Assembly: GCA_002633005.1 (NCBI GenBank)
Contig: NMRA01000135.1
Coordinates: 741,681-805,680 of the forward strand
Direction of reading: 5' to 3'
Length of the DNA stretch: 64,000 bases
Origin: Phoronis australis
Taxonomy: Eukaryota; Animalia; Phoronida
Shown: positions 4,763 through 56,433 of the stretch, piece by piece
How the letters are laid out: each line of letters opens with the position of its first letter
Numbering within the stretch: position 1 is the first letter of the stretch
Program-made: the position numbers and the translations under genes
The notes under the pieces: model-generated
Seen by the model: only the letters and a program-made list of their open reading frames with translations
Told to the model about the DNA's origin: nothing
The model's database searches: none

Positions 4763-5397
4763 ATGGGCGGGCTGCTATTATGTAGGACATTATCTACAAG
4801 TGTATGTATTTAGCCATATATTTAAGTCACTGTGAAGCAGAAAGCCCCAGCTCGGCACGAGAATTTTATTTTTGATTGGTCACCAATCTGCTATTCATTG
4901 GGAAACGCGACCATATCACTTTTATTATAAAGTTTAGCAAAAAGGGAAGGCATATCTCACGGCCACGGCATATCTGATCAACAACATGACCAAATTTGTT
5001 TGATATTCAATGTTCAAGATGAAATCTAATTAAACAACGGCTGTTTTAGTTTTCTCTAAATTGATTTTCTTATACAATTNATGGGCGGGCTGCTATTATG
5101 TAGGACATTATCTACAAGTGTATGTATTTAGCCATATATTTAAGTCACTGTGAAGCAGAAAGCCCCAGCTCGGCACGAGAATTTTATTTTTGATTGGTCA
5201 CCAATCTGCTATTCATTGGGAAACGCGACCATATCACTTTTATTATAAAGTTTAGCAAAAAAGGAAGGCATATCTCACGGCTACGGCATATCTGATCAAC
5301 AACATGACCAAATTTGTTTGATATTCAATGTTCAAGATGAAATCTAATTAAACAACGGCTGTTTTAGTTTTCTCTAAATTGATTTTCTTATACAATT
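4763..5397. other. 317-bp direct duplication around a single N (5080): probable contig-overlap/haplotype assembly artefact
   Basis: 4763-5079 repeats at 5081-5397 with ~2 substitutions, joined by one N. Confidence 0.85.
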
Positions 5398-6769: not shown

Positions 6770-8206
6770 ATGAAGAGCGAGTCACAAGGTGATGACTCTA
6801 TTAATATGACTGACCGCGAAACGGAGGTCTCGGAGGTGGTTCATCATGATGGACAGAACGACGTTGGCGAAAACCACGAACAGAATTTCAGAAAGACAGT
6901 GTACTTAACCATAGCGTTATATGCAAGTGTGTTTTGCCTTGGGCTTGTTGGTTCTGTAGTTGGACCATCTCTATTGGATTTACAGGAGTTGTATCAAATT
7001 ACTACATCCTCAGCTTTGATTATTGTTCCTTGCATTGCCGCCGGTTATCTCACAGGATCATTAGTTGGTGGTTACTTGTTTAGCAAACTGAATGACACTT
7101 TTTACTTTTTGTTAGGAAGCAGTGGTATGGCCATTGGTTTTAGTGCGGTGTTGTGGATTCCAAATTACCCTGTTGTCTGCGCTGTGATGACACTGACAGC
7201 AGTTTTTCAGGGTCTTTCGGAAGTGGCAAGTCACGTGTTCATAATGACCACGTGGAGAGCCAACCGGCACTTAGAATCATTGACTATGATCATCTCGGTT
7301 GTATGGTCGATTGGGTCATTCTTAGGGCCAATCATTTTAGAACCATTTTTGTCTGAACGCAGCCAAGGTTTCAGAAAAGATGGCGCAAACGTCACCGACA
7401 TCGCCTCTGTTCCTACCGGCAGCCAAACAAACATCCGGTACGGTTGGCTTGTAATTTCACTGGTTTGTTGCATGGCTGTTGCATTGACTGGAACTTCATT
7501 TTTTTGGAACGGAAGGGAATTTAAAAAAAGAAAGGTCACTACCGCAAATGCTGGAGGTAGTCAAAGACAAACAAAGTTGTATAAAGTACTGGTGTCATTG
7601 TTTGCCGTTTGTCTCTATTTTTTCTATATGTGCATTGAACAAAGCTTCGGAAGTTTGCTAACTGTCTACGTCGTTGATGGGCTTATGTGGGAAAAGTATA
7701 AGGGTCCTCTTATAACATCTGTCTACTGGGCCCTGTTTGGACTGTCTCAGGTTGTTGCCGTATTCCTCACAAAAATTGTTTCGCCCTTGAAGATAATTCT
7801 CGTTCATTTTGTGTTTGTCAGCATTGCATTACTTGTATTGAGTTTGACAGCTCATGTCAGCGAAACTGCGGTTTGGGTGTGTGTTGCTGTCGTGGGATAC
7901 AGCGAAGGACCATTTTTTCATTGTGGCTATTTACTGATAGACAAGTATCTGCCAATGGACGGTTGGCTCTCTGCGATCATAGTGTGCACTTCTTGTGGGT
8001 CTTCGATGATCAACATTCCGTTGCTAGGACACATATTTACTACGTATGGTTCCAGTGCTATGACTTTCACTCTCTTAGGCTATGCGCTTTCCGTTCTTGT
8101 TAGTTTGTGTTTGTTGCCGTGTGTTATACGTCGCTACCAACGTCGCCAGGAGATATCAAGCGTCGAGGTGATCGAGGAGCGTGTAGTGTTAAATAATAGC
8201 GCATAG
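6770..8206 (+). CDS. Major facilitator superfamily transporter, MFSD4 / sodium-dependent glucose transporter 1-like, 478 aa, single coding exon
   Basis: Long ORF with ~12 hydrophobic segments; N-terminal LGLVGSVVGPSLLDL and GYLTGSLVGGYLF, GSFLGPIILEPFL, and FFYMCIEQSFGSLL..Y motifs typical of the MFSD4/FucP group. Confidence 0.9.
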   Translation: MKSESQGDDSINMTDRETEVSEVVHHDGQNDVGENHEQNFRKTVYLTIALYASVFCLGLVGSVVGPSLLDLQELYQITTSSALIIVPCIAAGYLTGSLVGGYLFSKLNDTFYFLLGSSGMAIGFSAVLWIPNYPVVCAVMTLTAVFQGLSEVASHVFIMTTWRANRHLESLTMIISVVWSIGSFLGPIILEPFLSERSQGFRKDGANVTDIASVPTGSQTNIRYGWLVISLVCCMAVALTGTSFFWNGREFKKRKVTTANAGGSQRQTKLYKVLVSLFAVCLYFFYMCIEQSFGSLLTVYVVDGLMWEKYKGPLITSVYWALFGLSQVVAVFLTKIVSPLKIILVHFVFVSIALLVLSLTAHVSETAVWVCVAVVGYSEGPFFHCGYLLIDKYLPMDGWLSAIIVCTSCGSSMINIPLLGHIFTTYGSSAMTFTLLGYALSVLVSLCLLPCVIRRYQRRQEISSVEVIEERVVLNNSA

Positions 8207-11102
8207 TGGTTGGGAGAGGTTGAGGCGGCGGGGCTCGTATCGAGTAAGGGACGTAGCAAAACGCCCGTAATCCTCGCGGAATACCCCGGAAGAGGTATGC
8301 GTGACGTGCTTCACAGATGAGTGACTTTCCCAGTGAGAGAGCATGTACTAAGGGTTCACTTTACAAGTTAGATGGAACTCTACGCTTACGGTGGGGGTCT
8401 CGGATTGCTTCCAGGTGGGGATGTTTTGCATTTGATAAAATTCAATATGTACGAGGAAACCCGGGTGTAATGCAGTTTGAAATAAGTGTGTTATAAAAGA
8501 CAAATGGCTATTTGTTGCCGAAAAGCACCAGTGATTGATTGGGGTAACTTATGCAAATACAGTATTCAGTTACAATGGTCTTCAGAAAGGGTATATACAT
8601 ATTTATATTTAAAACTTATAATTTCAAAAGATATGGCAGTGGCGAGTGCTCATTGATAATATAACATCTCGTGCACTGTTTGTAACGTAATAGGTTAACA
8701 GATAGCCGTTCAAGAATCCCAACGAAACAGTTGGATTTATGAAGTTAACGCTTACGGAACTTTTTTTCTAGAACAAAATCCTACGAAATGGAAACTTTTT
8801 GTGGAATCTCCCTTAGAAACGGATCCCTTCTCTCGTCCAATCCAAAAGGTGTGGGTATCCTTTTTTCGGGCTCCACCCCACCCCCGTCGACGTCTGAGCT
8901 ATAACGTATTCGTGTACTGGTGAAGTGTCAGCCGACGCACGAGTTATGTTTGCCATAAGTTCGTAGTTGTAATGATAAATGTCGTGCAGTGCTGTGAACG
9001 TAGAAGCCTCACGGCGAACTTGGGATCAGATACGATTCTCGAATTTCTTGTTCTTCATGGCCGTGGTAAAATTAGATGGTTGGTTGTGTGTACTTGTTTA
9101 CCTATAACACATGTACATGTAGTCATCACACTGGTTACAATACAGGTGGGAACGGATACATTGGCGCATTCCTAGTCGAAGTTATCAGCGTAGGGGTTAA
9201 TGGTGCACTGTTTCAATGTGTTTCAGTTTTAATTTATTCTTGTTATGTTGCAGTTATTGTTTTGAGTGCCAATAAAGGAAATTAAAAACCACTTAATTTA
9301 TTTTCCACTCCGGTACCGTCAATGTCCTCATATACATGTTGTCTTTGTTGCCTGAAGTTTACAAGATTGTCTTGCTATGCAATGTTCAGTACTCGATTGG
9401 CAGAATGTATGGTAAGAAACCCACCAATCAATACAACAAGATATATCTAATCTGCTATCCTTTTTTGTGCACCGTTCCATATTTTGCTACCGCTTCACGA
9501 CTCCTCGTAGCTTTACTGTTAATGGTTGCTATATCTAGTTAATCCTATACAGGGTTTCCCAAAAACAATGTCAGTGTCATTTAAAATGACATTTGCCCGC
9601 TAATTCCTTATTTCTTTGATTGTTTGGTCAAAATAGTTAGAGAAAACAAAATATAGCAACGATGTGAATAGTTAAAAAATGCTAAATGCTTTTCAGAACG
9701 ATTTTTTGTGGAAAATGATCCGCCGTAAATCACTTAACCGTGTCCAATATATCGTGACGTGGTGTTGGGGAGGTCCGAAAGTACGTCATTAGTGCAAAAG
9801 TCACCTATTTGCAGAATTTCTTGTTTTCACATTTACAAGTGCTCAATGGATACTTCACATAGCATTGTCGTTTAGTTCTTGTTATACATTAGCATAATTA
9901 GGAGCATCCATCTTTAAATGCTTGCACATCGAAATCGAGGGTCAGGTTTTCATGAATGCAATTTGTTAAAATTAGTATGCATGTTTTACAGTAATTATCA
10001 AAAAAATATCTATAAAGGTGTCAATTTTGGAGGATGCACGCATCAAAAATGTCCTTGACCACTTTTTCGATCTGAGGTGCGCGCTCGGTGACCAATTGCT
10101 GATACAGATTCTAGAAGAAATGTGTATACTGAATAAATTTCGGTAATTACTCACGTTTGTTTGTCATGTAATTACGTAATTTTAACCTTTATTATGCAAA
10201 TGAACTTAGACCATTGGATTTCACCAAGTAATTGGTGTCGGACACTTTTGTTGACATTGCCGGTTGTTGTGCAATTTTAGAGACCAACGAATATTGTTCA
10301 TTCATGCAAGAACATACATCAGTACCACTGAGATTAGTTGTCCCTACCATCCAATTACCCTTCTAGCTAGCGTAACCAAATAGTCAAGAACAAGATGAAC
10401 TTATCAAAAGGATACCGCCACTGGCAGATGAAAACAGAAAATCAATGTCAATGTGTGGAACATGATGATGCAATTGCGTCGTCTAGGGACGCAATGTGTG
10501 GTTGTTGGAGCAGGGGATAGACGTTTTAGTGAAATCATTTAACAGGTAAGTCTTTTAGAAGCAGCCGTGACAAAAGTGATATTCGTCTTTCACTCACTGA
10601 TTGATTTGCTTTTATTAACATTTAGATCTTTCATGTTTTCAGCGATGGGAAATAGTAAGGCATCTTGTAGGGGACCTTAATTAATTCCAGGAAACTCTAT
10701 ATTTTAATATATATTTACATAAAAATCCAAACTCCATACGAGTCATTTTCATGAATATCCATGAGTCCGCATTCAAACTCGAGTGTCATAACGTTCGCGA
10801 TTCCTTGCATATATCTACGTGACCCGCATCACGTTGAAAATAGATTAATGTTCATTATCTTGACAGTGCCCGTACTGCTATGTCTGGAGCCTTCAGTGAA
10901 GACATGCAGGTAGTTATTTGGGCATAACTGGGTAAGGGGAAAACTGCACTTAAAGTAGAATGCCATCTTAATCGGTCTATGTCCACATAACCTCGTATAC
11001 GGTCGATCTCACCTCGCCGAGAGGTGTCGCGTTAACCTGTGGAGGGCGAGTAAACGGCGTAGCGACGTCAGTGGTTCTTCTTACTGCAGAGTGAGTGCGG
11101 CT

Positions 11103-15607: not shown

Positions 15608-18193
15608 TTAAGTAAGCCACGGCTGAGCAAAAAGTGGGTCAAGGGGTTAACAGCTGACAATCTTTCACTCAGAACAGATTAAGAAATCAAGCTAATGCCA
15701 TTCGTAGCCTTGACATGCAGCACAGAACTTGAAATGTTCAGCCAAACCAGCAGGCGCCAAGTCACTGAAATTGGGGAGCTAAATTCAACTGTGGCTAAAA
15801 ACTATTGAATGCCACCTAAGCACTTATCTTTCTTTCCACCAGGTAATGATTGTCAGATCGCAACTAACTAGTAACTCCGGCAATGTTTCTGGTCACGATC
15901 TAATATTCCTCGCCAGGTGGTGTAACTATTAGTAATTATTTGGCAACCAACCATCTCACTCCCAGTAAATACTCTTCTTTTTTCCACCAGGTGGGGCAAT
16001 TATTGGTTGCTAGCTGGCAACCTAACTCATCTGACTCTTAGATGGTTTGGACTTCAGCACAAGGTGGAGCAGCGATTGGTTGTTAGATGGCAACCAACCA
16101 ATGCAAACTCGGTCTGCACTCATGTTTTCCGCCTTCTAGGTGGCCGGGACAGAAATTTTAACTTGAACAATATTTACAAGGGTGAGTTGTCGCCTCTCCA
16201 AAACTAAACTCATTGAGCAACTCCCATCGGTGTCAGGAACTCTTGTCGATTCTTCAACGTACGGAAACCGCCAGCGAAACATTCATTCAAATAAGACAAA
16301 TTTTGCGGAGGAAAAATTATCAGGATTAAGTTTTATTCCTGTCCACAAGTTGTGAAATGGAACAACTGCCGTCATTTCAATAGTTTTCAGCTATTGCTCG
16401 ATTTTCATCACCCAGTTTCTGTGTCAGTTAGCACACGTTGCTAATAGCCTTTGACCGCCATTCTTTAATAAATCATTTATTCGCAAGAAGTATGTGCGGG
16501 ACAGTCACCTGATGTATGCGTCATTCCAAATATGGCAAAAGCATTCACCTGCCATACAGCTGTATATGGATTTTCAAAAAGGTACATCATGAAACACATT
16601 GCTGTTGGTAACATATTGGTGCATCAGTTTATTTCAATTTTCTCTTTTCTTTTGATTTCAGGAAAATGCGTGTTTACATTCACCCGTGTCGTTGAAATGC
16701 GGTCAATGTTTTTCTATTTCCAGTCCTGTTATGTGCTCAATGTGTTGTTATTTAAACAACTCATTGCACACGAGGTGTTGCAGGCTCAGGAACGTTACAA
16801 GCTTTTCAAAAAACTTGCGGAAACGCTAAATATAATCATGCGTGAAAGTGAGTTGTTTTCGTTCTTGGTGATTTAATGTAATTTGAATCTCATACAACCT
16901 GTCTCACTAACAAGTTACGTCAGTCCGTCTACCTGTTCACCAATTCTTGAACGGAGATAACGGGCTGGAAAGTCAATGCTGTAAAAAACCGTCCAAGAAA
17001 AATTTGATTCGGACTTCTTACTTTTGTGGAATTGGTCTTAAGTTCTCCCCTAGCGAAATCAAAATTGGTTTCTGTCCTCTGAAAGTACAGACAGTTCATT
17101 ATAGCTTGATACCAGGCTGTGTAAGTTGACTTGTCACGGCGTGTCATTTAACGCATCGAGCATGATCTCGGAGAATTACGAAGAGTCAGTCTTGCAAGTC
17201 CAGAAATAGCTTCTCGTCAGAGTAATGAAGAAGTTGAAACCAATTTCATAGCAGTAAGTTATCCAAATCAAAAGTTCACTTCTTTGACGAAAAGGGTTTT
17301 GCAGTCGCTTTAATTTTGCGATGGATGATCATGAAATGACCCAGGCAAGAAAATCGCTGGAGTCGCAACTGTCCTCGCCAGTTAGCTTAGCCTTTAAAAA
17401 CACATGCTGTAACAGAAAATCACATTTCATATTTATTTGTTCAACTTCCTGGTTCATTTTTAGGTTTAAGCAATATCCCGCAAAGATTTTTAGAACACTT
17501 TTCCTCAATTTGTATTTGGCGCTCCGGCCCGTGCTTTTTTGAAGAGGTGTGTTTATCAAACATTTAATAAGGGGAGACAATATTACCTGTAGTGCGAGAC
17601 TGAACAGAAGGGCATCGGGTTTAAAACTTAATTTCGTTCAGATTCTAAAAGGTAATCAAGCCGAAAAGGGTCCCGGAAATTGATATCATATGTTATGCAA
17701 CCAGAACCCCTTCCTTAAAATATATTTTATTTCCCCGCGTCATATTTATCCCCACTTCTCTGGTTTTGAGCAGGTCGGTCGGTTGCTGAAACCTGTTGTT
17801 ATATTTTTTGGTGCGCTCACTTTTGTTTCTTATGTTGAAAAATAAATATTTGAGGCCTCCTGAAAATACTTGTTCGTTGCAATAGCCCAGGAAAATTACA
17901 CATCCGAATAAAACGCGTGTTAATTTTTGTTAAACTACATTATGTTTTAATATTAGTGGATGTTATTAGACAAAGTTGCTGGCATATCAAGAGAAGCCAA
18001 TAACATTCTCTTGTATAAAACGCCTGTACACATGTAGCTCAACATTCATGTATTTATACCACATATCAAAGTTTTGAAATCCACATTTTTCGTCACTTGC
18101 AGTAACTGTGTCACATGACCGTTCATCAGCCTAGGTTCTTACAAGGACACGTGACACCCAAGGACGTATCAAGACATATGCAGTATGATTTAA
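15608..18193. repeat. Copy 1 of a ~2.6-kb tandem direct duplication (copy 2 = 21292-24780)
   Basis: TTAAGTAAGCCACGGCTGAGCAAAAAGTGGG (15608) matches 21292; GGACGTATCAAGACATATGCRGTATGAT ends both copies (18189, 24776). Confidence 0.9.
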
Positions 18194-18458
18194 AGGCGAA
18201 GGCAACCTTTTTCCATGTCATTTTGAGCTAAAATAAGGTTGGTTGGTCATCCTAGACATATTTTCCACTTAGTTACAGGTTTTCGTAATTTTATTAATTA
18301 ATCGTCCGCTACTCCGGAAGTGACGTTTTAGGAGGCAAGCATTTCGCGCCAATTTCTTTTCATATAGTCTGACTGTGAGAGCTGCCGAGTCAGTCATTGT
18401 TCTACCTCGGTTGTGTTAAGTTCCGTCGTCGTTTGCTTTCATTTACTAGTCAGTCAAC

Positions 18459-19245
18459 ATGCCACACTGTTGCTGCGTACCAGGATGTACTAATTATCGG
18501 CACACGCGCGCTTTGGGAGTACCTTTGCATCGCTTTCCGATGGATGACACACTTCACCGTACTTGGCTCGTTCGTGTGAAGAACGCAGCGTTACCCGTCC
18601 ACGCAACGTACAAAGCAGTTGAGAATTACCGTGTGTGTGGCAAGCACTTTCTGCCGTCCGATTACGAAAGGGATTTGTACGCTGAACTGATGAAGGTCCC
18701 TGCGAAACAACGTCTGAAGAAGGATGCCATTCCGTCTGTGTTGATTCCCGGCAGTGCCCCGTCAGTCGCCACCCCAGAGAAGTGCGTTTTTGAAGCGAGA
18801 AGCCTCGCAAGCTGTGGCCAGTACAGTGACTGGAGCCAGTGGAGGCACTTCATCTACTGTCACCCGTGCCTCCGAACGTACCCCAGAGCGTGCAATTCCT
18901 GGAACCAGTAGCGATTCGCCCTGTGCTGTTTTCTCCAGCCCCTAGCCTCTAAGCAGCCCTGCAGCGATATTGAGTAGTGGGAGTGATTACAGGCTCAGTT
19001 CGACACCCAGTGAACAGGACAGTTCGTCGTCCAGTGAACAGATCGGTGAGCCAAACTTTGGTAAGATTATTGTGGACTTGTCTAAAGTGTTGGAGCTATT
19101 TAGAAGGTGCCAAGTGTGTGGCGAGGGAGTCACACGACACGATGTAAGCAGTTTGGGTGCTCATGTCACCATCCAGTGGGAGTGTGTCGCGGGACACTCT
19201 GGCAAGTGGGACAGTTGTTCCTCTGTCCGTGGTATGCCGGAGGTC
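18459..19245 (+). pseudogene. Truncated, frameshifted THAP-domain transposase N-terminus
   Basis: MPHCCCVPGC...LHRFP...W...RVCGKHF...RLKKDAIPS is a full THAP C2CH domain; then a Ser-rich linker and CQVCG...WECVAGHSGKWDS; no DDE core present. Confidence 0.85.
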
Positions 19246-19556
19246 CACTTAACCATGTCTAGTAGTGGCTTGGCCTCGTCGAACTCTGAACAGCACAAGC
19301 ATTCCATTGAGGTAGGCACAACAACGCACACAGTGCATTTGCACCAATATGTGTCACCACGTCTGTCCTCAGTAGCCGCCTCGTTTCTTTCAACAGCTGC
19401 CTGTGCCTGTGTGTACTCTGCCTCGTTATACTCGGGCTCAAACACGTACCCACCCACTGGATGTCCGTGAAAAAAATCCTCGTCACCACTGCTGTGAACA
19501 AGGTCTCCGTCACTCACACTACTGTCACTGTGATACGGGTCACCGACTCCAGCCAT
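19240..19556 (-). pseudogene. Truncated KolX-like / P2X7 cytoplasmic-ballast-like Cys-rich accessory protein
   Basis: Acidic N-terminus, Y-x-FEP motif, then WCKCTVCVVVPTSMECLCCSE; truncated where it meets the transposase fragment. Confidence 0.7.
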
Positions 19557-19625
19557 TTTCAGCTTACAACACACTAACCAACCTTATTTTAGCTCAAAAT
19601 GACATGAAAAAGGTTGCCTTCGCCT

Positions 19626-21291
19626 CGCCAACCTTTTTTCATCATGATGTCATTTTGAGCTAAAATAAGGTTGGTTGGTTATCCTAGACATATTTTCCAC
19701 TTAATTACAGCTTTTCGCAACTTTATTAATTACTCGTCCTCTACTCCGGAAGTGACGTTTTAGGAGGCAAGCGTTTCCCGCCACTTGGTTTTGCGTTGAG
19801 TTTACCGTGCGAATCTGTTCTATTCTACTTTTGTTTTGTGCTGTTTTCAACAATTGTCGCCACCACTTTCCATCGGCGAGTATTCTGCGGCAAGATAGGT
19901 TAGTAGAGAACTCAACTACGTTGGATTTAGGGATTGTTTAGTGTCGTTGTAAGCTGAAAATGGCTGGAGTCGGTGACCCGTATCACAGTGACAGTAGTGT
20001 GAGTGACGGAGACCTTGTTCACAGCAGTGGTGACGAGGAATTTTTTCACGGACATTCAGTGGGTGAGTTCATGTTTGAGCCTGAGTATAACGAGGCAGAG
20101 TACGCACAGGCACAGGCAGCTGTTGAGAGAAACGAGGCGGATACTGAGGACAGACGTTGTGACACATCTTGGTGCAAATGCACTGTGTGCGTTGTTATGC
20201 CAACCTCAATGGAATGCTTGTGCTGTTCAGAGTTCGACGAGGCCAAGCCACTACTGGACACGGTTAAGTGGACCTCCGGCATACCACGGACAGAGGAACA
20301 ACTGTCCAACTTGCCAGAGTGTCTCGCGACACACTCCCATTGGATGGTGACCTGAGCACCCAAACTGCTTACATCGTGTCGTGTGACTCCCTCGCCACAC
20401 ACCTGGTACCTTCTAAATAGCTACAACACTTTAGACAAGTCCACAATAAACTTATCAAAATTTGGCTCACCGATCTGTTCACTGGACGGCGAACTGTCCT
20501 CTTCACTGGGTGTGGAACTGGGCCTGTAATCACTCCCACTACTCAGAGGCTCTGGGCTGGAGAAAACAGCACAGGGCGAATCACTACTGGTTCCAGGAAT
20601 GGTACGCTCTGGGGTACGTTCGGAGGCACGGGTGACAGTGGATGAAGTGCCTCCACTGGCTCCAGTCACTGTACTGGCCACAGCTCGCGAGGCTTCTCTC
20701 TTCAAAAACGCACTTCTCGGGGGTGGCGACGGGGCACTCGGCCGGGAATCAACACAGACGGAATGGCATCCTTCTTCAGGCGTTGTTTCGCAGCGACTTT
20801 CATCAGTTCAGCGTACAAATCCCTTTCGTAATCGGACGGCTGAAAGTGCATGCCACACACACGGTAATTCTCGACTGCTTTGTACGTTGCGTGGACGGGT
20901 AACGCTGGGTTCTTCACACGAACGAGCCAAGTACGGCGAAGTGTGTCATCCATCGGAAAGCGAATCTAAGGTACTCCCAAAGCGCGCGTGATTAGTACAT
21001 CCCGGTACGCAGCAACAGTGTGGCATGTTGACTGACTAGTAAATGAAAGCAAACGACGACGTAACTTAACACAACCGAGGTAGAACAACGACTGACTCGG
21101 CAGCTCTCACAGTCAGACTATATGAAAAGAAATTGGCGCGAAATGCTTGCCTCCTAAAACTTCTCTTCCGGAGTAGGGGACGAGTAATTAACAAAATTAC
21201 GAAAAGCTGTAATTAAATGGAAAACATGTCTAGGATAACCAACCAACCTTATTTTAGCTCAAAATGACATGAAAAAAGGTCGTCTCCGCCT
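19626..21291 (-). mobile_element. Kolobok-type deletion derivative (copy 2), inverted relative to copy 1
   Basis: Reverse-complement copy of 18194-19575; KolX-like ORF 19960-~20275 (+); THAP ATG at 21026 (-); ends CGCCT followed by TTAA at 21292-21295. Confidence 0.85.
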
Positions 21292-21711
21292 TTAAGTAAG
21301 TCACGGCTGAGCAAAAAGTGGGTCAAGGGGTCAACAGCTGACAATCGATCGTTCACTCAGAACAGATTGAAAATTCAAGCAAATGCTATTCGTAGCCTTC
21401 ACGTGCAGCACAGAACTTGAAATGCCCAGCCAACCCAGCAGGCGCCAGGTTTTAATGAAAGTGGGGAGTTAAATGCAACTGTGGCTAAAAAAATTATTGA
21501 GTGCTCATCTTTTTTCCACCAGGTGGGGTACGTAGTTGCTGTCTGGTAACCAACTATCTCGCCATTTGACTCGTAGATGGTTTGAACTTCAGCACCAGGT
21601 AGAGTAACTATTGGTTGTTGGTTGGCAACCAATCAACTCACAGTCGGTCTGCACTCCTTTTGCTTCCACCTTCTAGGTGGCCTGAGCAGATATTTAACTG
21701 CAGCAATATTT

Positions 21712-27720: not shown

Positions 27721-27755
27721 CATAAATTTGAGGCCTCGATTGAATTTCAATCAGT
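27721..27755 (+). promoter_or_regulatory. Core promoter of cystine-knot gene A: TATA-like CATAAAT and TCAGT initiator
   Basis: CATAAAT 27721-27727 lies ~32 bp upstream of the A in TCAGT (27753), which is 33 bp before the ATG; the paralog has TATAAAT at the same position. Confidence 0.65.
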
Positions 27756-27785
27756 CTCTCATATGAGTCTATTTGACCGAGCAAG

Positions 27786-30700
27786 ATGAAATTGGTAAGA
27801 AGTGTTCAAACTGATAATTAATTTCAATCTTTAATGCCAGGATTTGTATTGGAAATTATCAATTTTCTTGGTTTTCACGGCGGTGCTCCCTCTTTGAGTA
27901 TTCAACAAACAAGTTTTGTTTTAGTTAAATAACTCTACAAATTAGTTTCGTTGATTGCTTTGGCTGAAAAAAATAGAAAAAATCTTCCGCGAGAGTAAAC
28001 TCCAGCACCACGCATTTGGAATGAAATAGGTAATAACATTTTAAGGGTTTTGCTTTTACTGCGTTGCACTTTAAATGAACGACTATTAACATTTTTCTTA
28101 AAGTTAAAACTTTTACTGTAAACTAATCTCCATGCATGGTTTTTGAAAATCCTTGAATAATCTTCTTTTGTTTCCACCAACCTAGAACATAGAATGAGTT
28201 TCAGCAATAGCAAGATAAAACTGAAACATTCGTAAATTGCATATCTGTTCGTTTACTTTTCAAAACAATTGTAAGTCTAAAACCTGTTTGCATAACCAAA
28301 AGTTCAAAATCTGGTAAAGGTCTATATTAAGTTCTGCTTATCTAAAAACCGTTTTTGTCGTAATAGCATCATTTTGAATGATTTCAGTAAATTTGATTTG
28401 TGTTCTATTAAGTTTTCACTTAAAATGAAGCTCAAGCACTGTTAACTGTGTAAAGATACAAGCAATCGGAGGCCCGATAGTAGCAAGTGGAAACTAATTA
28501 GATCACGTGTTCTTACTAATCTTGCAAGAAGCTAGCCCAATGAAAGGTAGCCTAAGAGAGCGTTGTATAGTTGCAATAGGCTTGCGAGTAAAGATAGTGA
28601 GGTGATATGCTTCCCTTCTAGTGACTCTCGAAGATTCGCGTGGTCTCGCTTTTCTCTCAAAAGAATTGCTGTACAAAACGCATTCTACATTACGAGACAT
28701 TTGACTCCATTTTGATTTGCCTTTTGTGCAAAATTAAACTGAAACTCACTTTACTTACGCAAAATGAGTGCAAGGGTGTGTTTACGTAAAGTGGCTCAAG
28801 GATGTATTTACAGGCTCCTAACTATGCTAATGTATAGCAGATAATCTACTCTAAACGAAGTACAGTTGTATTCATTGACAACTTGTAAGTGTGAAAACAA
28901 AAAAAAATTCTGCAAATAGGTGCCCTTTACACTAATGACGTGCCTCACTTTGTCATATAGCCAGCATCGTGCAGTGTTATTCCACAACACCACGTCATGA
29001 TACTTACTAGACACGGTTCAGTGATTTGCGGAGGATCATATTCGCCACAGAACTCGTTCTTAAAAACATTTAGCAATTTTCAACCTACTTCTTCATATTT
29101 ACATCGTCGCTATATGCTGTGTTTTGAACTAATTAGGCCAAGCAATCACAGAGATAAGGTATTAACGTGCAGTTCCACCTGAAAACTTTTAAGTTTTAAG
29201 TTTATGTCTTAAGACATAAATTTGGTGTAACACTCACTGGTCACAATTACAGAATAGGCTTACCACAGTGTAGCCATATTTCATACAAGTATTCATGGTA
29301 GCTATTAGTTTATGGATATATTCAGAGACTTTGTACTTTGTGCTGAATTGACATCTATTTTTTCAGAAATATTTGGGTCGAGCGTAAGACCAAGTAGTTT
29401 TGAGTCATTTTTCCTAAAACAGACTCTAGGTGTAATTTCAAACACATTTTTTGTTTTTCTCTTAAAACTTTATTGAATGACGTGGGTCGAAGTACTTACA
29501 ATATTTCAAATGTTTATCAAACTCAAGTCCCATTGACGGAACACTAGACTTAGAAATTATGTCCCTGTAGAACAACTACTTAAATTTGACTTGCACGACT
29601 AGTTGTTTCAGCTACTGTCATTTGCAGATCTATGTATATTGCATTTTAGATCTTCGTATACGCTCTCCTGGCGTGTGTCGCAGGGTTGCTTCAAGCTGGC
29701 GATGCCAAAATGTACGGCATCATGGAAGGCAACGTCGATAACACAGATCCCAGCGAACGTTCAGTAGAAGAGGGCGATGATCAAGGCAACGAAGAAGTTG
29801 TCGAACAGCCAGATTTCAGCGCTCGAACAGTGGAGGACTCGTTGGAAGACGACGACAGCGAATCCGACCCTTCCGCTCGCTCTGAAACTGACGTTATGCC
29901 TGACAGCGTTGATGTACACAAAAGATTGTTTCCAGGGAATTGTACGATCTACCGAAGGCGGTTCATTTTGTATCTCCGAATAAACGGGAAGCTTTACCGA
30001 CTACGCCATGTATACATAAGCCACTGGTGTCGCGTCCCAGGGTAAGGCGTTTTAAGCTGAGAGTTGAATCTCCAGGTAGTAAATTGTCAAAAAATAAAAT
30101 GAAGATGGGGAACTTTACTTGACATTCTGCCTTGTGCTTACGAAAAACGTCAAAAATTGTCAATACTCTGCGTTGTAACGAGGTCTCATATATAATTAAA
30201 ATGCATTATTTTCAAACGTGAAACGACAGAACCTTTAATTTAAAGGATACTAAACCCTGTTTTGATGATTTCAACCAATCCTCAGTCTGCCATCTCCTAA
30301 TGGATTATTGGCGTCAATTTTGAAAGATAAAAGTTGGAATCAACTAAAACTCTAATCTGACAAACTGGACATCGCGGTCCTTTGTGGGTGGTCTTTTCCC
30401 ATTGTTGCCGTGTAATTCGCTAAAAGTTTAGGTCACGCTTGCCCGTTTAGCAGACTTTGCAAGCAGTTTTCAAAATTTCCTCTACACTTTTGAGGGTTGC
30501 CGAGGGTTACTGCGCATTATTCGTTTCAGAGACCTGGATGGGAAAGTCGTTTCAAGTATCTGTTGATAGGCTAAAACCGAGTTTGATATCCTTTTAAACT
30601 TTAAATGGTTAAATTCGTCAGGGAGGATTACTAAAGGGGATAGTGTTTTGCTTTTGTTTCACGTGACTGTCACGCTGCGTGTGTTGATTCGGTGACGGCG

Positions 30701-31195
30701 GTGGTGCATGTTCTTGTCCAGATACCTGCTTCCCTTCCTGAACGGTAGATGTCGTGATATTTGCTTTACGCAGAGGTCTATGGACTGAAGAGTCTGCTCT
30801 GAGGGTATCGTAGCTCAGAATAGCCGAAGAAAAACGTAAATCTTAGCATGTTGGTGTCTCTGCGTCACCTCTCACTACTTGACAAAACTTATCCAAAGCT
30901 TCTACTGAAAACATGCTCAATCAAAATATATATTCATATCTTCATGTACCAAATACAGTGCCCACTGTGAGATTCGCCGCATTATTAAATGAGCTATGGT
31001 TACGCGGTGAGACTTGAGTGAGTTGGTTACTTTTCTATTTGCAGAGAAATTTGCGAGTTTCGCGGTAGGAATGGAAAATGTTACACTCGCCGATTCCGAG
31101 TTCGCACCATCGCCAGGTGCATGAGATGTAGCAAATGGGTTAGAGTTTGGTTCATTTTGGTAAGATGTTGCTGCGTCCGCTTTAAACTTGGCTAA
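27786..31195 (+). CDS. Gene A: secreted preproprotein (183 aa) with acidic propeptide and Arg-rich neurotrophin/Spaetzle-like cystine-knot mature domain; exons 27786-27794, 29650-30041, 31045-31195
   Basis: ATGAAATTG|GTAAGA; TTTTAG|ATC; GG|GTAAGG; TTTTCTATTTGCAG|A. The phases join into MKLIFVYALLACVAGLLQAGDA-[acidic]-VHKR-LFPGNC...CRVPGEICEFRGRNGKCYTRRFRVRTIARCMRCSKWVRVWFILVRCCCVRFKLG*. All splice sites, frame and AATAAA (31514-31519) are conserved in the paralog. Confidence 0.85.
30244..30593. mobile_element. Kolobok-type MITE (TTAA TSD) in intron 2 of gene A
   Basis: TTAA|AGGATACTAAAC...GTTTGATATCCT(T)|TTAA; empty site in the paralog intron near 54165; a second, inverted copy at ~38856-39184. 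Confidence 0.8.
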
Positions 31196-32799
31196 AGAAC
31201 AGATGGCTACAGAGACGACCTGTGAAGAGCTTACCACAATGGGAAGTGAAAAAACATGGCAATGAAACGTATTATAATTTTCTGGCATTGTTTTGTTAAT
31301 ATTTCGAGCTTTTCGCACATGTAATTTCTGGATGTGTCTAGAATTCATTTAAGCTAGAATAGCTTTTAATATTTTTTGTGCACCTGTGTGTTAAGGTCAA
31401 GGACTTTTGAGAAAAACTCACGCTGTTGGGTCTACATGAAGTGCTGTTTCCAAGGTAACACTTTCAACTGCCAAAATGTTTTGTTAACTGTCCACCTGAC
31501 AACAAGACATTCAAATAAAACCTGCTTCATTTTCACTACGTAATAGTGTTAACTTTTACTTTAAACACAAATGGCACATATTCGTTACATAGCCAACATT
31601 TCAACTCCAACGAGAGCTATCTAGCCTGTGTATGAACCTCTTTCAGTGAGCGCGGAGACAAACATTCGAAACACTATTTTATTTTTTTTATTCTCAAATT
31701 TCCTCCCAAAGTGTTTAATATCTCAGTCTGCGCATATGCGCACTTTATTCACTTAAACGAGACACTCTACTGTTGCCTGGAAGTGCGCACGTCACTAGAC
31801 TCGATGCACTTTCCACTCGCTCGAAAACTACTACGAACAAATTGAAAAATTGTGAGTCGTTTCACATGTAAACCGCTATGCATGACCGCAGAAACTTTAC
31901 TCCATCCCAACGTATTTTTGGTCCTTTACTTCCAGCGATAAAGAAAGCGAGGATCCGAAAAAAGGTGCAGAAGCACGCAAAATTGACACTTTTTAGCCCA
32001 AAACTATTTTTGATCACACAAATGCTAGTAAGACATATCAATCCAACACTAGATTCAGAAAAACAAATATCGTGGAAATTCAAAAAACGTGGTCCAAAAG
32101 TGTCGCCATGTCAGTAATTTTTTGCAATTCTGGGGTTGCAGGGTCCATATGAAATCGCAGCAGATTTCTCATTCGCTACGCAGAAATGCAAAAAATGCTC
32201 TGAGGAGGGGAGGGGAGGGAGGCGGCCGCCATCTTGAAGAAAAGTGTATCTACAGCGGAACTAGTGGACTTTTCTCATTCCCAACATGATAACAAACAAA
32301 AGCAAACTGTATTCACAGAACTTGATAGTAGAGCCTAGTACCTCAAATTAACCGTGGCCACAAGTACAATCTAACTGTACTGTGCCACCAAAGAATGTGT
32401 CTTTTAAGGAGAATGTTTGCCGTATGGCTGAAGTTCTACATGTAGGCTCACATGTGTGGCGAAGATGTTGCAGTTTCAGTGTCTCTGTAAAACGCTCTTG
32501 CGAAAACACCAGTGTTTTAAGGCCCGGCAGACAAACATCCTGGCTGTGAACGGGTCATTTTTGCCACAAGTTAGTTTTGTTTCCTTACCACGCGAGTCGC
32601 TTTTCATGCAATAAGTGTGATCTTCGTTATGTCAACATGCGGTAACTTTGACGAATGACAACCACCTTAAATGGGTATAAACCAGCGTTCCGTCAAAGAA
32701 GTGAAGTTTTCATTCAGACCGCTTACCGAGTTCTGTACTTGGATGAGACTGAATTCTGTAGCTGTTTTGACCTCTTAACCCCTGAGACCAGGCTCAGCG

Positions 32800-32969: not shown

Positions 32970-34982
32970 TGAAATCATAACGTGACTAGTTTGACACACC
33001 CTAGCTAGGCCCTACTTCTGGAAAAAACGTGAGACCAATTTCATAACGGAAACAGAAACCTATTTTTGTATGAAAGGCGGGTTAATAGCCGCTTTAAACT
33101 TTTGCTAACAGCTAGGACTACGTTCCTTCGGATTCTCTTACTAGTTCATTCAAAATTTCCTGCAGGGATATCAAGCTCAGGTAACTGTCGGTGTTTCGTC
33201 AATTGTCTACGGCAGGCTGGTTCTAAGGGAGAGAGAATACAATACGAATTTCAAAGTGTAAAACGATCATACTATACTCGTGAAATTTTCAAATAGAAAT
33301 GTGGACATGTACTCCTGTGCCCGGTTGCATGAAACAGTCCCAAATAGGGACTCAACTAAGTTACCCAAGTCCACTGCGTATTTTTGGACTTGTGAAAACA
33401 TCGATAGCCCTTTCTTGTATTGTTTTAGTTTCATTTCTAAATGAACTTTTGACTTTGATTCAAATAGAGAGTGAACTCTACGTTGAATTGTCAATATTGT
33501 CGAAAATGGTTAGGGATCTTTTCATGCATCACCCCCAATTTACGGACTGAGTCCCTAATTATTTTCAATGAACTCTGTGCTCAGTGTTTAGTTATATTAT
33601 TAGAAAATGTCATTAATCAAATAGGAGCTCATCATAAAGATGAAATGATAGAAAAATATTACATCCGTGAGTCCATAAAGACACAAATACGCAAAAAAAA
33701 CCCCTAGGGACCTTAGTTGAGTCCATTTTGGAACTGTTTCTTGCAACCGGCCATTGATTTATCGAACTATAATTTTCTTATGATATTCAAAACGTTTGTA
33801 GGTGACATCCTATTTCAAAAGTAAATTTCGTTTAATTCTTCCTGCATGATTTTCTATCTAAGGCAGAGACCGTAGCGTCTTTGTCAAAGGTGCAATTAAG
33901 ATTTCAATCACGAAATAAAACGGCTCCTTGTCAAACAATTTTGAGAAAAATTGGCAAGAAAGTCGTCGATTTCNTGAAATCATAACGTGACTAGTTTGAC
34001 ACACCCTAGCTAGGCCCTACTTCTGGAAAAAACGTGAGACCAATTTCATAACGGAAACAGAAACCTATTTTTGTATGAAAGGCGGGTTAATAGCCGCTTT
34101 AAACTTTTGCTAACAGCTAGGACTTCGTTCCTTCGGATTCTCTTACTAGTTCATTCAAAATTTCCTGCCGGGGTATCAAGCTCATGCAGGTAACTGTCGG
34201 TGTTTCGTCAATTATCTACGACAGGCTGGTTCTAAGGGAGAGAGAATACAATACGAATTTCAAAGTGTAGAACGATCATACTATACTCGTGAAATTTTCA
34301 AATAGAAATGTGGACATGTACTCCTGTGCCCGGTTGCATGAAACAGTCCCAAATAGGGACTCAACTAAGTTATCCAAGTCCACTGCGTATTTTTAGACTT
34401 GTGAAAACATCGATAGCCCTTTCTTGTATTGTTTTAGTTTCATTTCTAAATGAACTTTTGACTTTGATTTAAATAGAGAGTGAACTCTACGTTGAATTGT
34501 CAATATTGTCGAAAATGGTTAGGGATCTTTTCATGCATCACCCCCAATTTACGGACTGAGTCCCTAATTATTTTCAATGAACTCTGTGCTCAGTGTTTAG
34601 TTATATTATTAGAAAATGTCATTAATCAAATAGGAGCTCATCATAAAGATGAAATGATAGAAAAATATTACATCCGTGAGTCCATAAAGACACAAATACG
34701 CAAAAAAAACCCCTAGGGACCTTAGTTGAGTCCATTTTGGAACTGTTTCTTGCAACCGGCCATTGATTTATCGAACTATAATTTTCTTATGATATTCAAA
34801 ACGTTTGTAGGTGACATCCTATTTCAAAAGTAAATTTCGTTTAATTCTTCCTGCATGATTTTCTATCTAAGGCAGAGACCGTAGCGTCTTTGTCAAAGGT
34901 GCAATTAAGATTTCAATCACGAAATAAAACGGCTCCTTGTCAAACAATTTTGAGAAAAATTGGCAAGAAAGTCGTCGATTTC
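32970..34982. other. ~1-kb direct duplication around a single N (33974): probable haplotype/contig-overlap artefact
   Basis: 32970-33973 vs 33975-34982 are near-identical (a few SNPs, one 4-bp indel); the identical 78-aa ORF appears twice. Confidence 0.85.
33319..33752. mobile_element. MITE with ~40-bp TIRs (CCGGTTGCATGAAACAGTCCCAAATAGGGACTCAACTAAG)
   Basis: Right end CTTAGTTGAGTCCATTTTGGAACTGTTTCTTGCAACCGGCC; independent diverged copy at ~48720-49076. Confidence 0.75.
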
Positions 34983-38021: not shown

Positions 38022-41000
38022 ATGGTGTATTTTGTTTTCCTTTCGACAATTTTCTTGACGTCTTCTTGTCTGTTTGTACTTGTGACCGCCGGGACGTTAA
38101 GGCCTTACTTTCTATACATCAACAGAATAGCCACAGGCCAGTCCCACTGGGTGCAACCAGTCCATCGGTGTGACCGAATGCCCCCACCTCTGTGACTTGA
38201 CGCAAGGATGCAGCGCGTTCGTCTACTGCTCCGCTAATATTTCGTGTCAACTTCATACGGGCAGGGCCGTTACGCATGAAACAAGTGGGAATAATTGCAC
38301 GTTTGGCCGCAAGGTAAGACACGGTCTTCATTTCAATCGAAGAAATAGATTTTTGAAAGCAAGGCTTTTTGTGTCCCAAAATTTTCATCTGCCCACAGAT
38401 TCGTCGCAGTTTTGTAACAAAGTAGATCGAGTATTTTGCTCACGGTACGAATTGAAGCAGAATCCACGTGATCAAAACTGGATACTTGACCCAACCCGCG
38501 TTAGACGTGAAGTGTATTGAAGCACACGAATATTTTTTTTAAGTTTACGAGATCATGCGCACAAAGTAACACAGCAACACAAAATAAATCAGACTCGACC
38601 GGCTGACAGTGCTATAGTCTCGTCAATGAGATGGTTGCATTTGTATTCAAAAGTTACGAGCACAGAACAATCAGGTATAGGTCTACTGGTACAGCGGCAA
38701 CAGGCAGTCAAGTGGGTATTTAACTGTTGATCATATGAAACGGTTATTTCAAAAAAGCCGTTTGCTAATAGCGTAATAGAACTGATTCGTGTTGGTCTTG
38801 CCTATCCGAATATTATTCAAATATAAGCATGGAATGTACTTCTACATACTCTTAAAGGAATATCAAACCGGATTTTAGACCGCTAACAAATATTAAAAAC
38901 AAATTTTCCATCTAATTCTCTGAAACAAAATATTATCAATGTTCTGGAATCTCCGGCCACATTCGAAAGTTTGGGGGAAAATTTGAAAACTCCTTTTAAA
39001 GTCTGTTAAACGGACAAGCGTGACTTACGCTTTTAGTGAATTACACTTACAACTTTGGCGAAAGGCCACTCACCAATTAGTTGAGTCCTGCTTTCATATC
39101 GTTCAAGAAAGTGGCCACTAATGCATAAGCAGACGAGAGAACGAGGATCGTTTGAAATCATCCAAACATGTTTTAGTATCCTTTTAACTATACGACTCCT
39201 CCTTTTAGATAAGTTTTCAAATCATTACTAATTTGCAACCCAAAGTTACCTAGCTTTCCAAAATATTATTCCTAAAAGATATGTAGATATTCATCGGGCT
39301 TATTTGACTCGATTCACCAAACATTAGAGCCAAGCTTTCAGATACAGCATTGGAGTCCATTACCAATATCAGTTTATTCGGATGTAAAAGGTATTTTAAT
39401 GATACTGAAATATTCAGGCATTTATTATCGGTGCTCTACTTGCGCTTATAGCGATATTTCAATCGAAATTAATGGAAACACTCCATTTTATCTTGACGTT
39501 CAATTTACTTTTGCAGGTTTTTAAGGGCTGTGAAGATCATGGTGAGTGAATCATAAGTACAGGATGACAATCGTGTAGTCTATATTGTCGTCAGTTACGT
39601 TATGATTTAAGCAAATGAAATGTAAATGTTTCCGTATAGAATAGTATAACTAGGCAGTAGTGCCCTCTGGTGCAGAGTTCGTTAAAAACGATGCGACATT
39701 CATTGTTGGATAACTTCTTTCTGAATTTCTAGTATTGTCTAAAAATAGGCTACTCCTTGACAGCCGATCGCATCTATGCAGTAGCTCCCCGAGCGACATC
39801 GCTAAAAGTTATTTAAAATTGTATTAAAATTACATTACACCCCAGTACTTCGAATAGTACGTCGCATTCAGTTAGAATACACTACAATATAATTCCAGGA
39901 CTTCCAAGGACGTTCTACATTCTTCAACTGATCATGTAGACTGTTGGTCATGAGATTTCGGAAACTACTAGTGTCGCCCTCTTTTAGAGATATCGAAAGT
40001 GTTGTTTAAAAAGAAAAATGCCTAATTCCTGATGCTACTTATTCAGACGACTAAGCAAACTCACTGCTCTGTCTCATCTTTAATGGTAAATGCTAACACG
40101 TCTGTATTGCCCTATCTGTTTAGAGTTCATCGCCGTCTTTTCTTAGCGTTTAACTCATACGCCACGCGAACCTTTCTTTTTTTAAAATCGTATTTTAACG
40201 GAAATAGCTGTAACTTCCACAAATGTGAAAACTTACGCCAGATACGTGCAAATTTTATTTATTATTTGTCATTTCTTTCAAAGACTTTTACATGTAGCAC
40301 GAGAAATGTTGACTAAAGTCTGCAACAGTCCACTGCTCAGATCTCTGCCAAGATGACTTGCGATAATATTCCAACTAAAAGAAACAGAATTTGCGAGTTT
40401 CGTACGGAAATTAGGGGATTCCTTAAAAAACATAGCCACGTGACTACAAAAATCCAGACACTGTTGTCGTATACATGTCTCTTTGCTTACCTGTGGTACC
40501 CACGTGCTTAACATTTAGTAATTTAAAAAGTACTTGAAGAAATGCGCTCTTCAGTAACGAGGTTAGCCAGTCCCATGTACCTTAAAGTGCTTAAAACCAC
40601 CATTTACCTTGTTTTGACAAGTGGCAACATCACTAAAACTTCCTTTGTAGCACTGTATATAACAACCATTTTATCAATATCCCCAAATCGAGAAAATATG
40701 AGAAGAGCGACTTCAGTTGAAAATTTCTTTGCTCCGGCACCGACATGGCCGTGAGCTGAGTGTGACGTAAGGACTTACGCGACGCCAATGTGTCACAGGT
40801 GAGGATTTAGAGGGGGACCAAGGGGGCCATGCCCCACCCTAAAATTTTCCCAGATTCCATTAAGCCCCTGCTGCCATGCCCATTAACACACGAATTTGAT
40901 GTACAAACTTGTGCCATACCCACGCCTCTCCGACGTCCGGCGTAAAAATGAAAAGAACACAATCACCACAAACGCAACGCTTCGAAATTCCTTATTGTAC

Positions 41001-42169
41001 TGTAAACTAAAGGAAAACGGACAGCAATGATATCTGTCGACTTTTTCCCACTAAGTACAATCATGGAGAACGACTAGTGCTGTGTTGTCCCGATTTTATG
41101 TAGTATGTATCGGCCAATACTGCTCGTAGCATGAGATCAGCTAATTAACAAATCGTCAGATAGCGTTTGCTTTGGGCATGTACATTTTCGAGTGGCTTCA
41201 AATCTTCGATGGTTGCAATCTCCTGAGACAGGTACACCTCGTCACTCATTAAAGCAACGAGTCAGCGAACAGTCGGCTACTTGGACACGGAATGTACCAA
41301 TTCAAAATGTTCATCCAATCAATATATCAGACCACATGAGGCTTGCACTCCCACCAAGTTTTTTGCAGTTACAAGGCATGGCCGATGAAGGTCTTTGGTA
41401 CTGTTCAGTAAACGCAAGAAACTCGCCAGTAAAGATAGTGTTCATGTGCTTCGCGTGTAATACATGGTGATGTTTCACGAAGACTTTCGGGATCTTGGTT
41501 TTGTCTCAAACTTGGTCTAGGGAACCCAGTCATTTTTTGCGTCTTTCAGATCTGCCAGGCCTACGTCATACCCTCATCCATCCTGCGTGGAGTCAAGAGT
41601 CATTCATGGTAGTCTGTGACGGAAACTGGACGGTACTGATGACCCGTAAAGATGGAAGCGTGTCGTTTGATCGCTCCTGGCAAGACTACAAGGTGGGATT
41701 TGGAAATCTCAGCGAATTTTGGCTTGGCAACGAAGTTGCTCACAACTTCACTAAGCAATCACAGTGTGAGCTTGCAGTAGAGATACAATCTTTTGACGAC
41801 GAGGTATCCTACTTCCGCTACACTGCTTTCTATGTTGGCAGTGAAAACAGCAATTTCCAGTTATCTTTTGATAAAGTAGATCCCTATAATTGGGGTGAAG
41901 GGTTGGTTGACTTAAATTATGCAAAGTTCTCTACATTTGACCGTGACAATGATGCGTGCGGAGGGGAATTGTGTAATTGTGCCTCCAAGCGAAAAGGCGG
42001 ATGGTGGTATACCGCATGTGGCCCTATAGCCCTAACAGCCACGTACCCGCACAACGCAACCTATTGTCCGAATGGGGCATCGCTTTTAAACTGTATGAAA
42101 CATTATAGCAGGCCTCGTGGCTCTCAAGTATTGCTGAGGTCAGCAGTATTGAAATTTAGAAAGACATAG
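38022..42169 (+). CDS. Secreted PAN/apple-like + fibrinogen C-terminal (FReD) lectin-like protein; exons ~38022-38313, 39517-39541, 41550-42169; apparent frameshift in exon 1
   Basis: Signal MVYFVFLSTIFLTSSCLFVLVTA; ECPHLCDLTQGCSAFVY...SCQLH (PAN-like); AAG|GTAAGA; 25-nt micro-exon TTGCAG|VFKGCEDH|GTGAGT; phase-1 join to TTTCAG|AT; FReD motifs DGSVSFDRSWQDYKVGFG, EFWLGNE, FSTFDRDND, GGWWY..C. Confidence 0.8.
38856..39184. mobile_element. Kolobok-type MITE, same family as 30244-30593, opposite orientation
   Basis: TTAA flanks; its reverse complement begins AGGATACTAAAACATGTTTGGATGATTTCAAACGATCCTCG, matching 30244. Confidence 0.7.
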
Positions 42170-52429: not shown

Positions 52430-53535
52430 GGGGGTTTGCCCCCCCCCCCCCACCTACAGGTATGTCGGGCAAAAAAGCAAAATTTGTGACAGATGGATAA
52501 TGGCAAGGCCGGGGGGAAGGGGCGATAGGAAGAACAGGACGAAATTTTGGCGAAGTCTAATTACCTTTCTAGCATTACTTGTGAAGCCGTGCATTTTGGC
52601 GTCAGATAATGCTGATCACAGTTACGAACTTCGGTGAAAGCCTAAAAGCTGTTTCCAAAATCTGCGACATTTTGAGCAACGCATTATGAATTTCTATGTA
52701 TTTTTCTGGATATGATGTTGGCTTATATGTCTAGAACCGACAGGGAAGTGGAATTTTGGGCTGTAAACTGTCAATTTTGAGTGGTTTGGTGCATATTACG
52801 GACCTTCGCTTCCTTTATCGCCGGAAGCAAACGGGCCAAAAATTACTTCTGATAGAGTTTTTGCTGTCATGCACAGTGGTTTTCATGTGAAACGACTTTT
52901 CATTGTGTTCATAGCAGTTTTCGACAAAGTGGAAAATGCATCAAGTCCAACCTTTGACTTGAGCACTGCCAGACAACCGGACGGGCCTCCTTTGTATTTC
53001 AGCACAAGAATATACTGATATATAAAACACCTTGGCGAAATTTGAAGCTATAAAAATGCCCGAGATGTTCCGAATGATTCCAGTCATATTGCCGCAGCGC
53101 TCACTGAAGGAGAATACACAAGCTCAGCTCGTGTTCGGGGACGAAAAGTTGCGATTTTAAGAAGTTAGTTTTAAATATGTGACATTAAGTAAAAGTGAAT
53201 ACAACTACATGATGCAAATAAAGCAGGTTTTATTCGAATGTCTTATAGTCTGCTAGGCAGTTAACAATAAATTTGAACTGTTGGAAGTGTTACTTTGGAA
53301 ACAATACTTCATGTAAACCTCACAGCGCCGATTTTCCCAAAAGTCATTACCTTTAACACCCAATGCACACACACAATACGTTGAAAGCTCTTTTAGCTTG
53401 AAATGAATTCTTGAAACATGTACTAAAAGCTTAAAATATAAACAAAATTGATGCCAGTCAATTATAATACATGTTTTTTACGTCCGTGGCGGTTGTAGTA
53501 TGTTGTTTGCAGGTGGTCCGTGTTACCATCAGTTT

Positions 53536-56360: not shown

Positions 56361-56394
56361 CTTGCTCATTCAAGTGTACCTCTTACTCGATATG

Positions 56395-56433
56395 AGAGAC
56401 TGGTTGAAATTCAACCAAGGCCTCAAATTTATA
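56395..56433 (-). promoter_or_regulatory. Core promoter of gene B: TATAAAT box and CCAGT initiator-like site
   Basis: ATTTATA at 56427-56433 (TATAAAT on -), same spacing to CAGTCTCTC as in gene A. Confidence 0.65.

Follow-up and report, generated by a model that had tools for sequence, protein, structure and literature searches.

What does a secreted protein do when its cysteines are spaced in part as in a receptor ligand and its mature portion holds almost no acidic residue? The question is raised by a 64,000-nucleotide stretch of the genome of the phoronid Phoronis australis (assembly GCA_002633005.1, contig NMRA01000135.1, positions 741,681 to 805,680 of the forward strand), referred to below as the window, with coordinates counted from its first letter. 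The window holds a three-exon gene, gene A, and a diverged copy of it, paralog B. Together they form a small secreted family that, on the sequence searches reported below, is undescribed. Our tentative reading is that the likely secreted products are cut at a Lys-Arg (KR) site, adopt a cystine knot of the Spätzle type, and serve as polycationic, putative defence effectors on anionic microbial surfaces.

A first-pass annotation made from the letters alone had proposed gene A as a hidden three-exon gene, and its exon sizes, coordinates, frame and splice sites all proved correct. The coding exons (27786-27794, 29650-30041 and 31045-31195 on the plus strand; 9, 392 and 151 nt), separated by GT..AG introns, splice into a frame of 183 amino acids (aa) plus stop; gene callers miss the family because the first coding exon is 9 nt long. 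Both predicted junctions are spanned by reads: 27794/29650 by 21 reads in run X3, 113 in X4 and one X1 contig, and 30041/31045 by 23 reads in X3, 119 in X4 and one X1 contig, with a strandedness that fits the plus strand. The evidence comes from five runs (X1 to X5), four of which aligned to gene A and four to paralog B; no run is recorded as RNA in its listing, and the transcript evidence is the spliced alignment of the runs themselves. We consider gene A real because RNA reads cross both of its junctions, and not because a paralog exists, as had been argued at first.

Transcription likely starts at 27753, the A of a TCAGT initiator (27751-27755, plus strand), where an X1 contig has its 5' end, about 30 nt downstream of a TATA-like CATAAAT box (27721-27727, plus strand). 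Exon 1 (27753-27794, with its junction seen in X1, X3 and X4) consists of the 5' untranslated region (UTR) and three codons, and is followed by a phase-0 intron (27795-29649). Exon 2 encodes the rest of a hydrophobic, signal-like segment and an acidic pro-region (29650-29919), the KR site (29920-29925) and mature residues 1-39 with C6, hairpin 1 and C35 (29926-30041). The second intron (30042-31044) splits the codon of G39 in phase 2, between C35 and C42, and exon 3 (coding 31045-31195) supplies mature residues 39-88: C42, a heel loop, C51, hairpin 2, C80-C81-C82 and the stop. An AATAAA stands at 31514-31519, and another X1 contig ends at 31524. Each intron also contains a dispersed repeat (near 28814-29171 and 30236-30597); further copies occur at 9594-9905 and 38852-39190, and reads cover these repeats in both orientations.

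Paralog B (56360-53536, minus strand) is found 22 kb downstream, tail to tail with gene A and with the same three-exon structure. Its promoter and exon 1 (56352-56433) comprise TATAAA at 56433-56428, CCAGT at 56403-56399 and coding sequence at 56360-56352; exon 2 (54368-54777) has an 18-nt in-frame insertion; exon 3 (53229-53686) is coding from 53686 to 53536 and carries an AATAAA at 53234-53229. The product is 189 aa long and has eight cysteines, C67 of A being absent. Both junctions of B, the first at 54777/56352, are read (1225/4 and 1534/18 reads in X3/X5, on the expected strand) and are also crossed by X2 contigs. The claim that the promoter is kept between the two holds for its aligned elements, CATAAAT in A facing TATAAAT in B, but the box of A is non-canonical and only B has TATAAA. 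Taken alone, this likeness is weak evidence for a gene, because the introns and 3' UTR are about equally alike and the split is recent, as judged from Jukes-Cantor distances of 0.19 in the promoter and 0.21-0.24 in introns and UTR and from a synonymous divergence (dS) of 0.24.

A six-frame scan for the exon-3 pattern found A and B as the only copies within the window. Loose read ends at 54336-54482 in X3 and X5 (8-25 reads each) differ from B; translated by eye, they have KK before the mature start, an altered hairpin 1 turn in an unchanged register, and C35 followed by a phase-2 donor identical to that of A and B. They indicate that the family has a third member, more divergent and located beyond the window, whose reads are relatively commoner in X5 than in X3.

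The transcripts are abundant and vary strongly between samples. Two samples of one study differ 58-fold in reads on B: X3 has 10,331 among 12,751,647 records (810 per million) and X5 has 155 among 11,046,276 (14 per million), some A-type and repeat reads being included in these figures. At junction 2, B-type reads outnumber A-type reads by 413 to 23 in X3 and 638 to 119 in X4, an excess that agrees with the canonical TATAAA of B and the CATAAAT of A. A-like forms dominate in X2, with many variant contigs and a summed contig depth that reaches 262,370 in a single bin, although the tool itself flags this measure as poor. Among the listed variants checked (12 for A, 10 for B), none removes a cysteine.

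Charge, cysteines and hairpins in the precursor

The layout first proposed for the precursor, with a signal-like N-terminus, an acidic pro-region, a KR and a mature domain, is supported by hydropathy and composition. Windows starting at residues 1-10 have a hydropathy of at least 2.0, as in a signal peptide, and the segment extends to about residue 18-22. From residue 22 to the KR, the pro-region (72-78 aa, without cysteine) has a net charge of -20 in A and -24 in B. The KR, a predicted convertase cleavage site, is the sole KR in the protein and is kept in B. The 88-aa mature domain of A (about 11 kDa) contains 18 R, 4 K, 2 E and no D, for the net +20 that had been claimed, and that of B reaches +25. 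Charges therefore balance in both genes, -20/+20 and -24/+25; the balance was kept because B gained acidic and basic residues alike. Cytotoxic cations are known to be neutralised by acidic pro-pieces in other systems, for example in defensins.

Two smaller features of the precursor may be recorded here. At residues 38, 60 and 78 the pro-region carries an S-[AEQ]-R-[ST] motif, each time followed by acidic residues (29750-29900; 54500-54680 in B); the three may be additional monobasic cleavage sites or an ancient internal repeat. Mature residues 5-7 of A form an N-C-T sequon (29938-29946) that is absent in B.

Gene A has nine mature cysteines, at residues 6, 35, 42, 51, 64, 67, 80, 81 and 82, with the spacing C-x28-C-x6-C-x8-C-x28-CCC; the first-pass annotation gave this spacing and C64 correctly and overlooked C67. 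The two C-x28-C segments are symmetric, C6 and C35 centring on N20-G21 and C51 and C80 on 65/66, with C64 facing C67. AlphaFold modelled the 41-aa exon-2 piece as two strands, at positions 13-21 and 24-33 of that piece, around a turn at mature residues N20-G21 (core predicted local distance difference test, pLDDT, 71-82; mean 63) and the exon-3 piece as a short, low-confidence hairpin around residues 60-73 (mean pLDDT 51). The Cys-bearing face of each hairpin has 5 R/K among 14 residues and the opposite face 2-3; the faces also contrast in hydropathy, clearly in hairpin 2 and slightly in hairpin 1. An internal duplication of the two hairpins finds no support in shuffles (p 0.42 and 0.20) or in hhalign (probability 0.2).

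Fold and relatives

The mature domain had been likened to the cystine knots of NGF, Spätzle and coagulogen, and the cysteine spacing bears this out in part. (Papers are cited below by PubMed Central number, PMC.) A cystine knot is defined by I-IV, II-V and III-VI bonding (PMC4079206), and the six-cysteine order that permits such bonding in neurotrophins and coagulogen (PMC4079206) is found in A and B too, with a C-x-C end. The conserved cysteines of the Tenebrio protein TmSpz-like fall at 175, 215, 222, 236, 265, 266 and 267 (PMC8509142); its pattern, C-x39-C-x6-C-x13-C-x28-CCC, shares the x6, the x28 and the CCC with A and B, that is, three of five spacing features. Of 200,000 shuffled versions of each mature domain, 1500 (0.75%) for A and 592 (0.30%) for B showed a loose knot pattern, and 78 (0.04%) and 22 (0.01%) a Spätzle-like one. 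Both genes have a phase-2 intron between the second and third cysteines of the putative knot, and Spz, Spz2, Spz3 and Spz5 have an intron inside theirs (PMC8296651, PMC2586362).

The likeness to Spätzle (PF16077 according to PMC8637286; Tenebrio TmSpz-like and Aedes Spz1C) extends to the precursor, with a signal peptide, a pro-domain, a basic cleavage site, here the single KR, and a C-terminal cysteine domain that has spare cysteines. The differences are also plain: the precursor of A is 183 rather than 294 aa long, the fingers are shorter, the mature charge is +20 to +25, the acidic pro-region is charge-matched, an extra cysteine sits at the tip of finger 2, and neither half of the domain matches at the sequence level. 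The Platynereis neurotrophin resembles A and B in dibasic pro-cleavage, and differs in a mature domain of about 120 aa against 88 here. From the neurotrophin/coagulogen superfamily in general, A and B differ in their extra cysteines, their polycationic character and the lack of the C-x-G-x-C motif of hormone and TGF-beta knots.

Several points weigh against a knot. Finger 1 (28 against 39 residues) and the heel (8 against 13) are shorter than in TmSpz-like; the shuffle patterns were defined after the sequence had been seen, and the Spätzle comparison relies on one paper's residue numbers; the intron match extends only to a place inside the domain. The AlphaFold models each cover one exon-coded half and give two hairpins, and C6 lies exactly across the strands from C35, as C51 does from C80, a register that would suit a pair of independently closed hairpins just as well. 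Balancing these points against the spacing and its rarity in shuffles, we think a Spätzle-type cystine knot probable from the sequence, and a two-hairpin fold unlikely, although it fits the same register.

Because the intron divides the domain, similarity and profile searches were run with exon-sized halves and could miss a distant Spätzle relationship. Within this scope the claim that the family is unrecognised stood. Five exon pieces (37-137 aa) found nothing relevant in Pfam (best E value 0.1; neither PF16077 nor NGF), both half-profiles gave 0 matches among PDB sequences at E 10, exon 2 of A, used in a word-index search for homologs, scored 0 of 6 candidates, exon 3 found no usable match in the ESM Atlas, and a viral scan (0 of 32) and Rfam (0 matches) were likewise empty. 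Against 1,835,955,588 proteins, a HMMER profile of the exon-3 half from A and B returned one match (E 7.5e-4); it was rejected as an 800-aa repetitive frame lacking the cysteine pattern. Two of 134 metagenome stretches passed a scan and were also rejected, both lying in long bacterial open reading frames (ORFs) without the cysteines. Fold searches with the half-models, uninformative for a hairpin and for a model of pLDDT 51, gave a best VIA Z of 2.6 and, with Foldseek, nothing below E 0.001 (arenicin-1 at rank 44, E 8.5). In the open-access literature, where such a search cannot go by sequence, neither the family nor a growth-factor-knot antimicrobial was found described.

A candidate defence effector and its rivals

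The function that we propose runs as follows. The signal peptide would route the precursor for secretion; along this pathway the acidic pro-region, of opposite and equal charge, would shield the cell from the polycation until a convertase cuts at the KR. C6-C51, C35-C80 and C42-C82 are predicted to form the knot, with two 30-residue hairpins held next to each other; C81 would be free for dimer bonds, as would C64 in B, and C64-C67 would staple the hairpin tip in A. Each hairpin, with an Arg-rich and a more hydrophobic face much as in arenicin, could then bind and disrupt anionic membranes or cell walls, and such faces would suit a molecule that acts on anionic membranes rather than one that fits a receptor.

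Acidic residues are scarce in the mature part, the pro-region matches it in charge, the transcripts are abundant and the paralogs turn over; together with the hairpin pattern, these features point to an effector that binds polyanions. The ratio of nonsynonymous to synonymous divergence (dN/dS) between A and B is 0.29 in hairpin 1, 0.40 in the pro-region, about 1.0 in hairpin 2 and 0.87 over the mature domain; by this measure hairpin 1 is under purifying selection. In the heel loop (residues 36-50), 13.7 nonsynonymous differences stand against 0.3 synonymous ones (Fisher p 0.01).

Two known systems make microbial membranes the most likely target, by analogy. With the arenicin class, the predicted domain shares an Arg/aromatic antiparallel hairpin, a two-residue turn and a basal cross-strand cysteine pair. 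A cationic amphipathic beta-hairpin is predicted for hairpin 1 and indicated by the register for both, its amphipathicity being clear in hairpin 2 and weak in hairpin 1. The genes are nevertheless excluded from the arenicin class because the BRICHOS domain is missing: the pro-region of A and B is acidic, without cysteine and without a Pfam match. They also have two 30-residue hairpins in an 88-aa domain in place of one 21-residue hairpin, and the fold match was not significant. A like layout occurs in the Hydra antimicrobial periculin-1, which has an anionic N-terminal part and a cationic C-terminal part with eight cysteines (PMC11767717), compared here by description; B has eight and A nine, and the searches with exon-sized pieces brought up no sequence match to it. 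In sum, the precursors resemble that of Spätzle in layout, and their products would probably work like a hairpin antimicrobial peptide.

Against this proposal, the two faces of hairpin 1 differ little in mean hydropathy (-0.04 against 0.06), and the heel-loop signal, picked out after inspection, comes from 15 codons. Beta proteins rich in Arg and aromatic residues, moreover, have chitin, mucins and minerals among their ligands. One alternative is a structural or adhesive secretion: the polycation would bind chitin, sulfated mucins, an egg coat or mineral, with the acidic pro-region holding it in solution until it is released. It would account for the very high X2 contig depth (poor measure though that is) and the sharp sample specificity; 31 of the 88 mature residues are beta-forming (V/I/F/Y/W/T), and the spare cysteines could cross-link. 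The mature part, however, is free of repeats and of low-complexity matrix motifs, and the concentration of amino-acid change in one loop is more typical of conflict between organisms, so we hold such a secretion to be improbable.

Nearly level with it in probability is a product with the same defence role and another fold, in which tandem long beta-hairpins are closed by C6-C35 and C51-C80, with C42 stapled to C81 or C82, and the likeness to Spätzle is coincidental. The exact cross-strand register of both cysteine pairs around a two-residue turn, the equal loops of 28 residues and the prediction that hairpin 1 folds alone all suit it, and arenicin-1 is a single-disulfide hairpin of this kind (PMC6627698). 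Against it, the x6/x28/CCC match to Spätzle is rare by chance, and the hairpins bear no sign of duplication. The fingers of a knot are likewise flanked by cysteines.

We give a still lower probability to a gland toxin or deterrent that acts on cell membranes or ion channels of animal predators or prey. Multiple copies, a variable loop, uneven expression and a signal peptide, acidic pro-region, dibasic site and Cys-rich part in series are typical of venom peptides, but the exon pieces matched no toxin family in Pfam, and neurotrophin, Spätzle, PTTH and trunk are terms absent from a review of hormone-mimicking toxins (PMC13311285). Least likely among the options first listed, because of its charge, abundance and fast-changing heel loop, is a genuine Spätzle- or neurotrophin-type ligand of a Toll-like or Trk-like receptor that is incidentally basic: the pre-pro layout, basic-site cleavage and spare dimerisation cysteine do recur in Spz and DNT1 (PMC9427763, PMC2586362), and mosquito Spz1C, with two inter-chain disulfides, is a precedent for eight cysteines (PMC9427763), but a net +20 to +25 on 88 residues, 810 reads per million in one sample and a mature dN/dS of 0.87, set against a DNT1 knot highly conserved across insects (PMC2586362), make this very doubtful.

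Returning to the defence effector with a Spätzle-type knot, we regard it as possible, with more reserve than for that reading itself, that a Spätzle/neurotrophin-type knot was converted in one animal lineage from an upstream immune signal to a polycation that kills directly. If true, this would be a case of a cytokine turned effector, and a new structural class of antimicrobial in which a two-fingered scaffold carries two arenicin-like hairpins behind a charge-matched pro-region. Growth-factor knots are described as receptor ligands, knotted toxins and antimicrobials using the unrelated inhibitor knot (PMC4079206); a growth-factor knot that acted directly on membranes would cross this divide and offer a stable two-hairpin scaffold. 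Even without a knot, the genes represent an abundant, multi-copy and unannotated secreted family.

The surrounding window

The window has a GC content of 40%, unlike the AT-rich Hydra. Its PAN-like exon ahead of a fibrinogen domain, taken with an intronless transporter gene, suggests a mollusc or another lophotrochozoan as host, a link that the similarity searches with the transporter and the fibrinogen domain did not confirm. Tandem duplications at 32970-34982 and 4763-5397, 99% identical and each joined at a single N, are likely assembly artefacts, and a 1.4-kb inverted duplication (18190-19581 and 19934-21295, 93% identical) with a THAP and P2RX7_C-like element is probably a transposon. An intronless ORF at 6770-8206 encodes a 478-aa transporter of the major facilitator superfamily (Pfam MFS_1, E 8e-16), for which a search at E 1e-20 gave no match. 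Between A and B lie a PAN-like exon (38131-38520, E 0.007) and a fibrinogen C-terminal domain (41471-42169, E 5e-37), the latter with one match, a frog ficolin at 43%; together they probably belong to one lectin-like immune gene.

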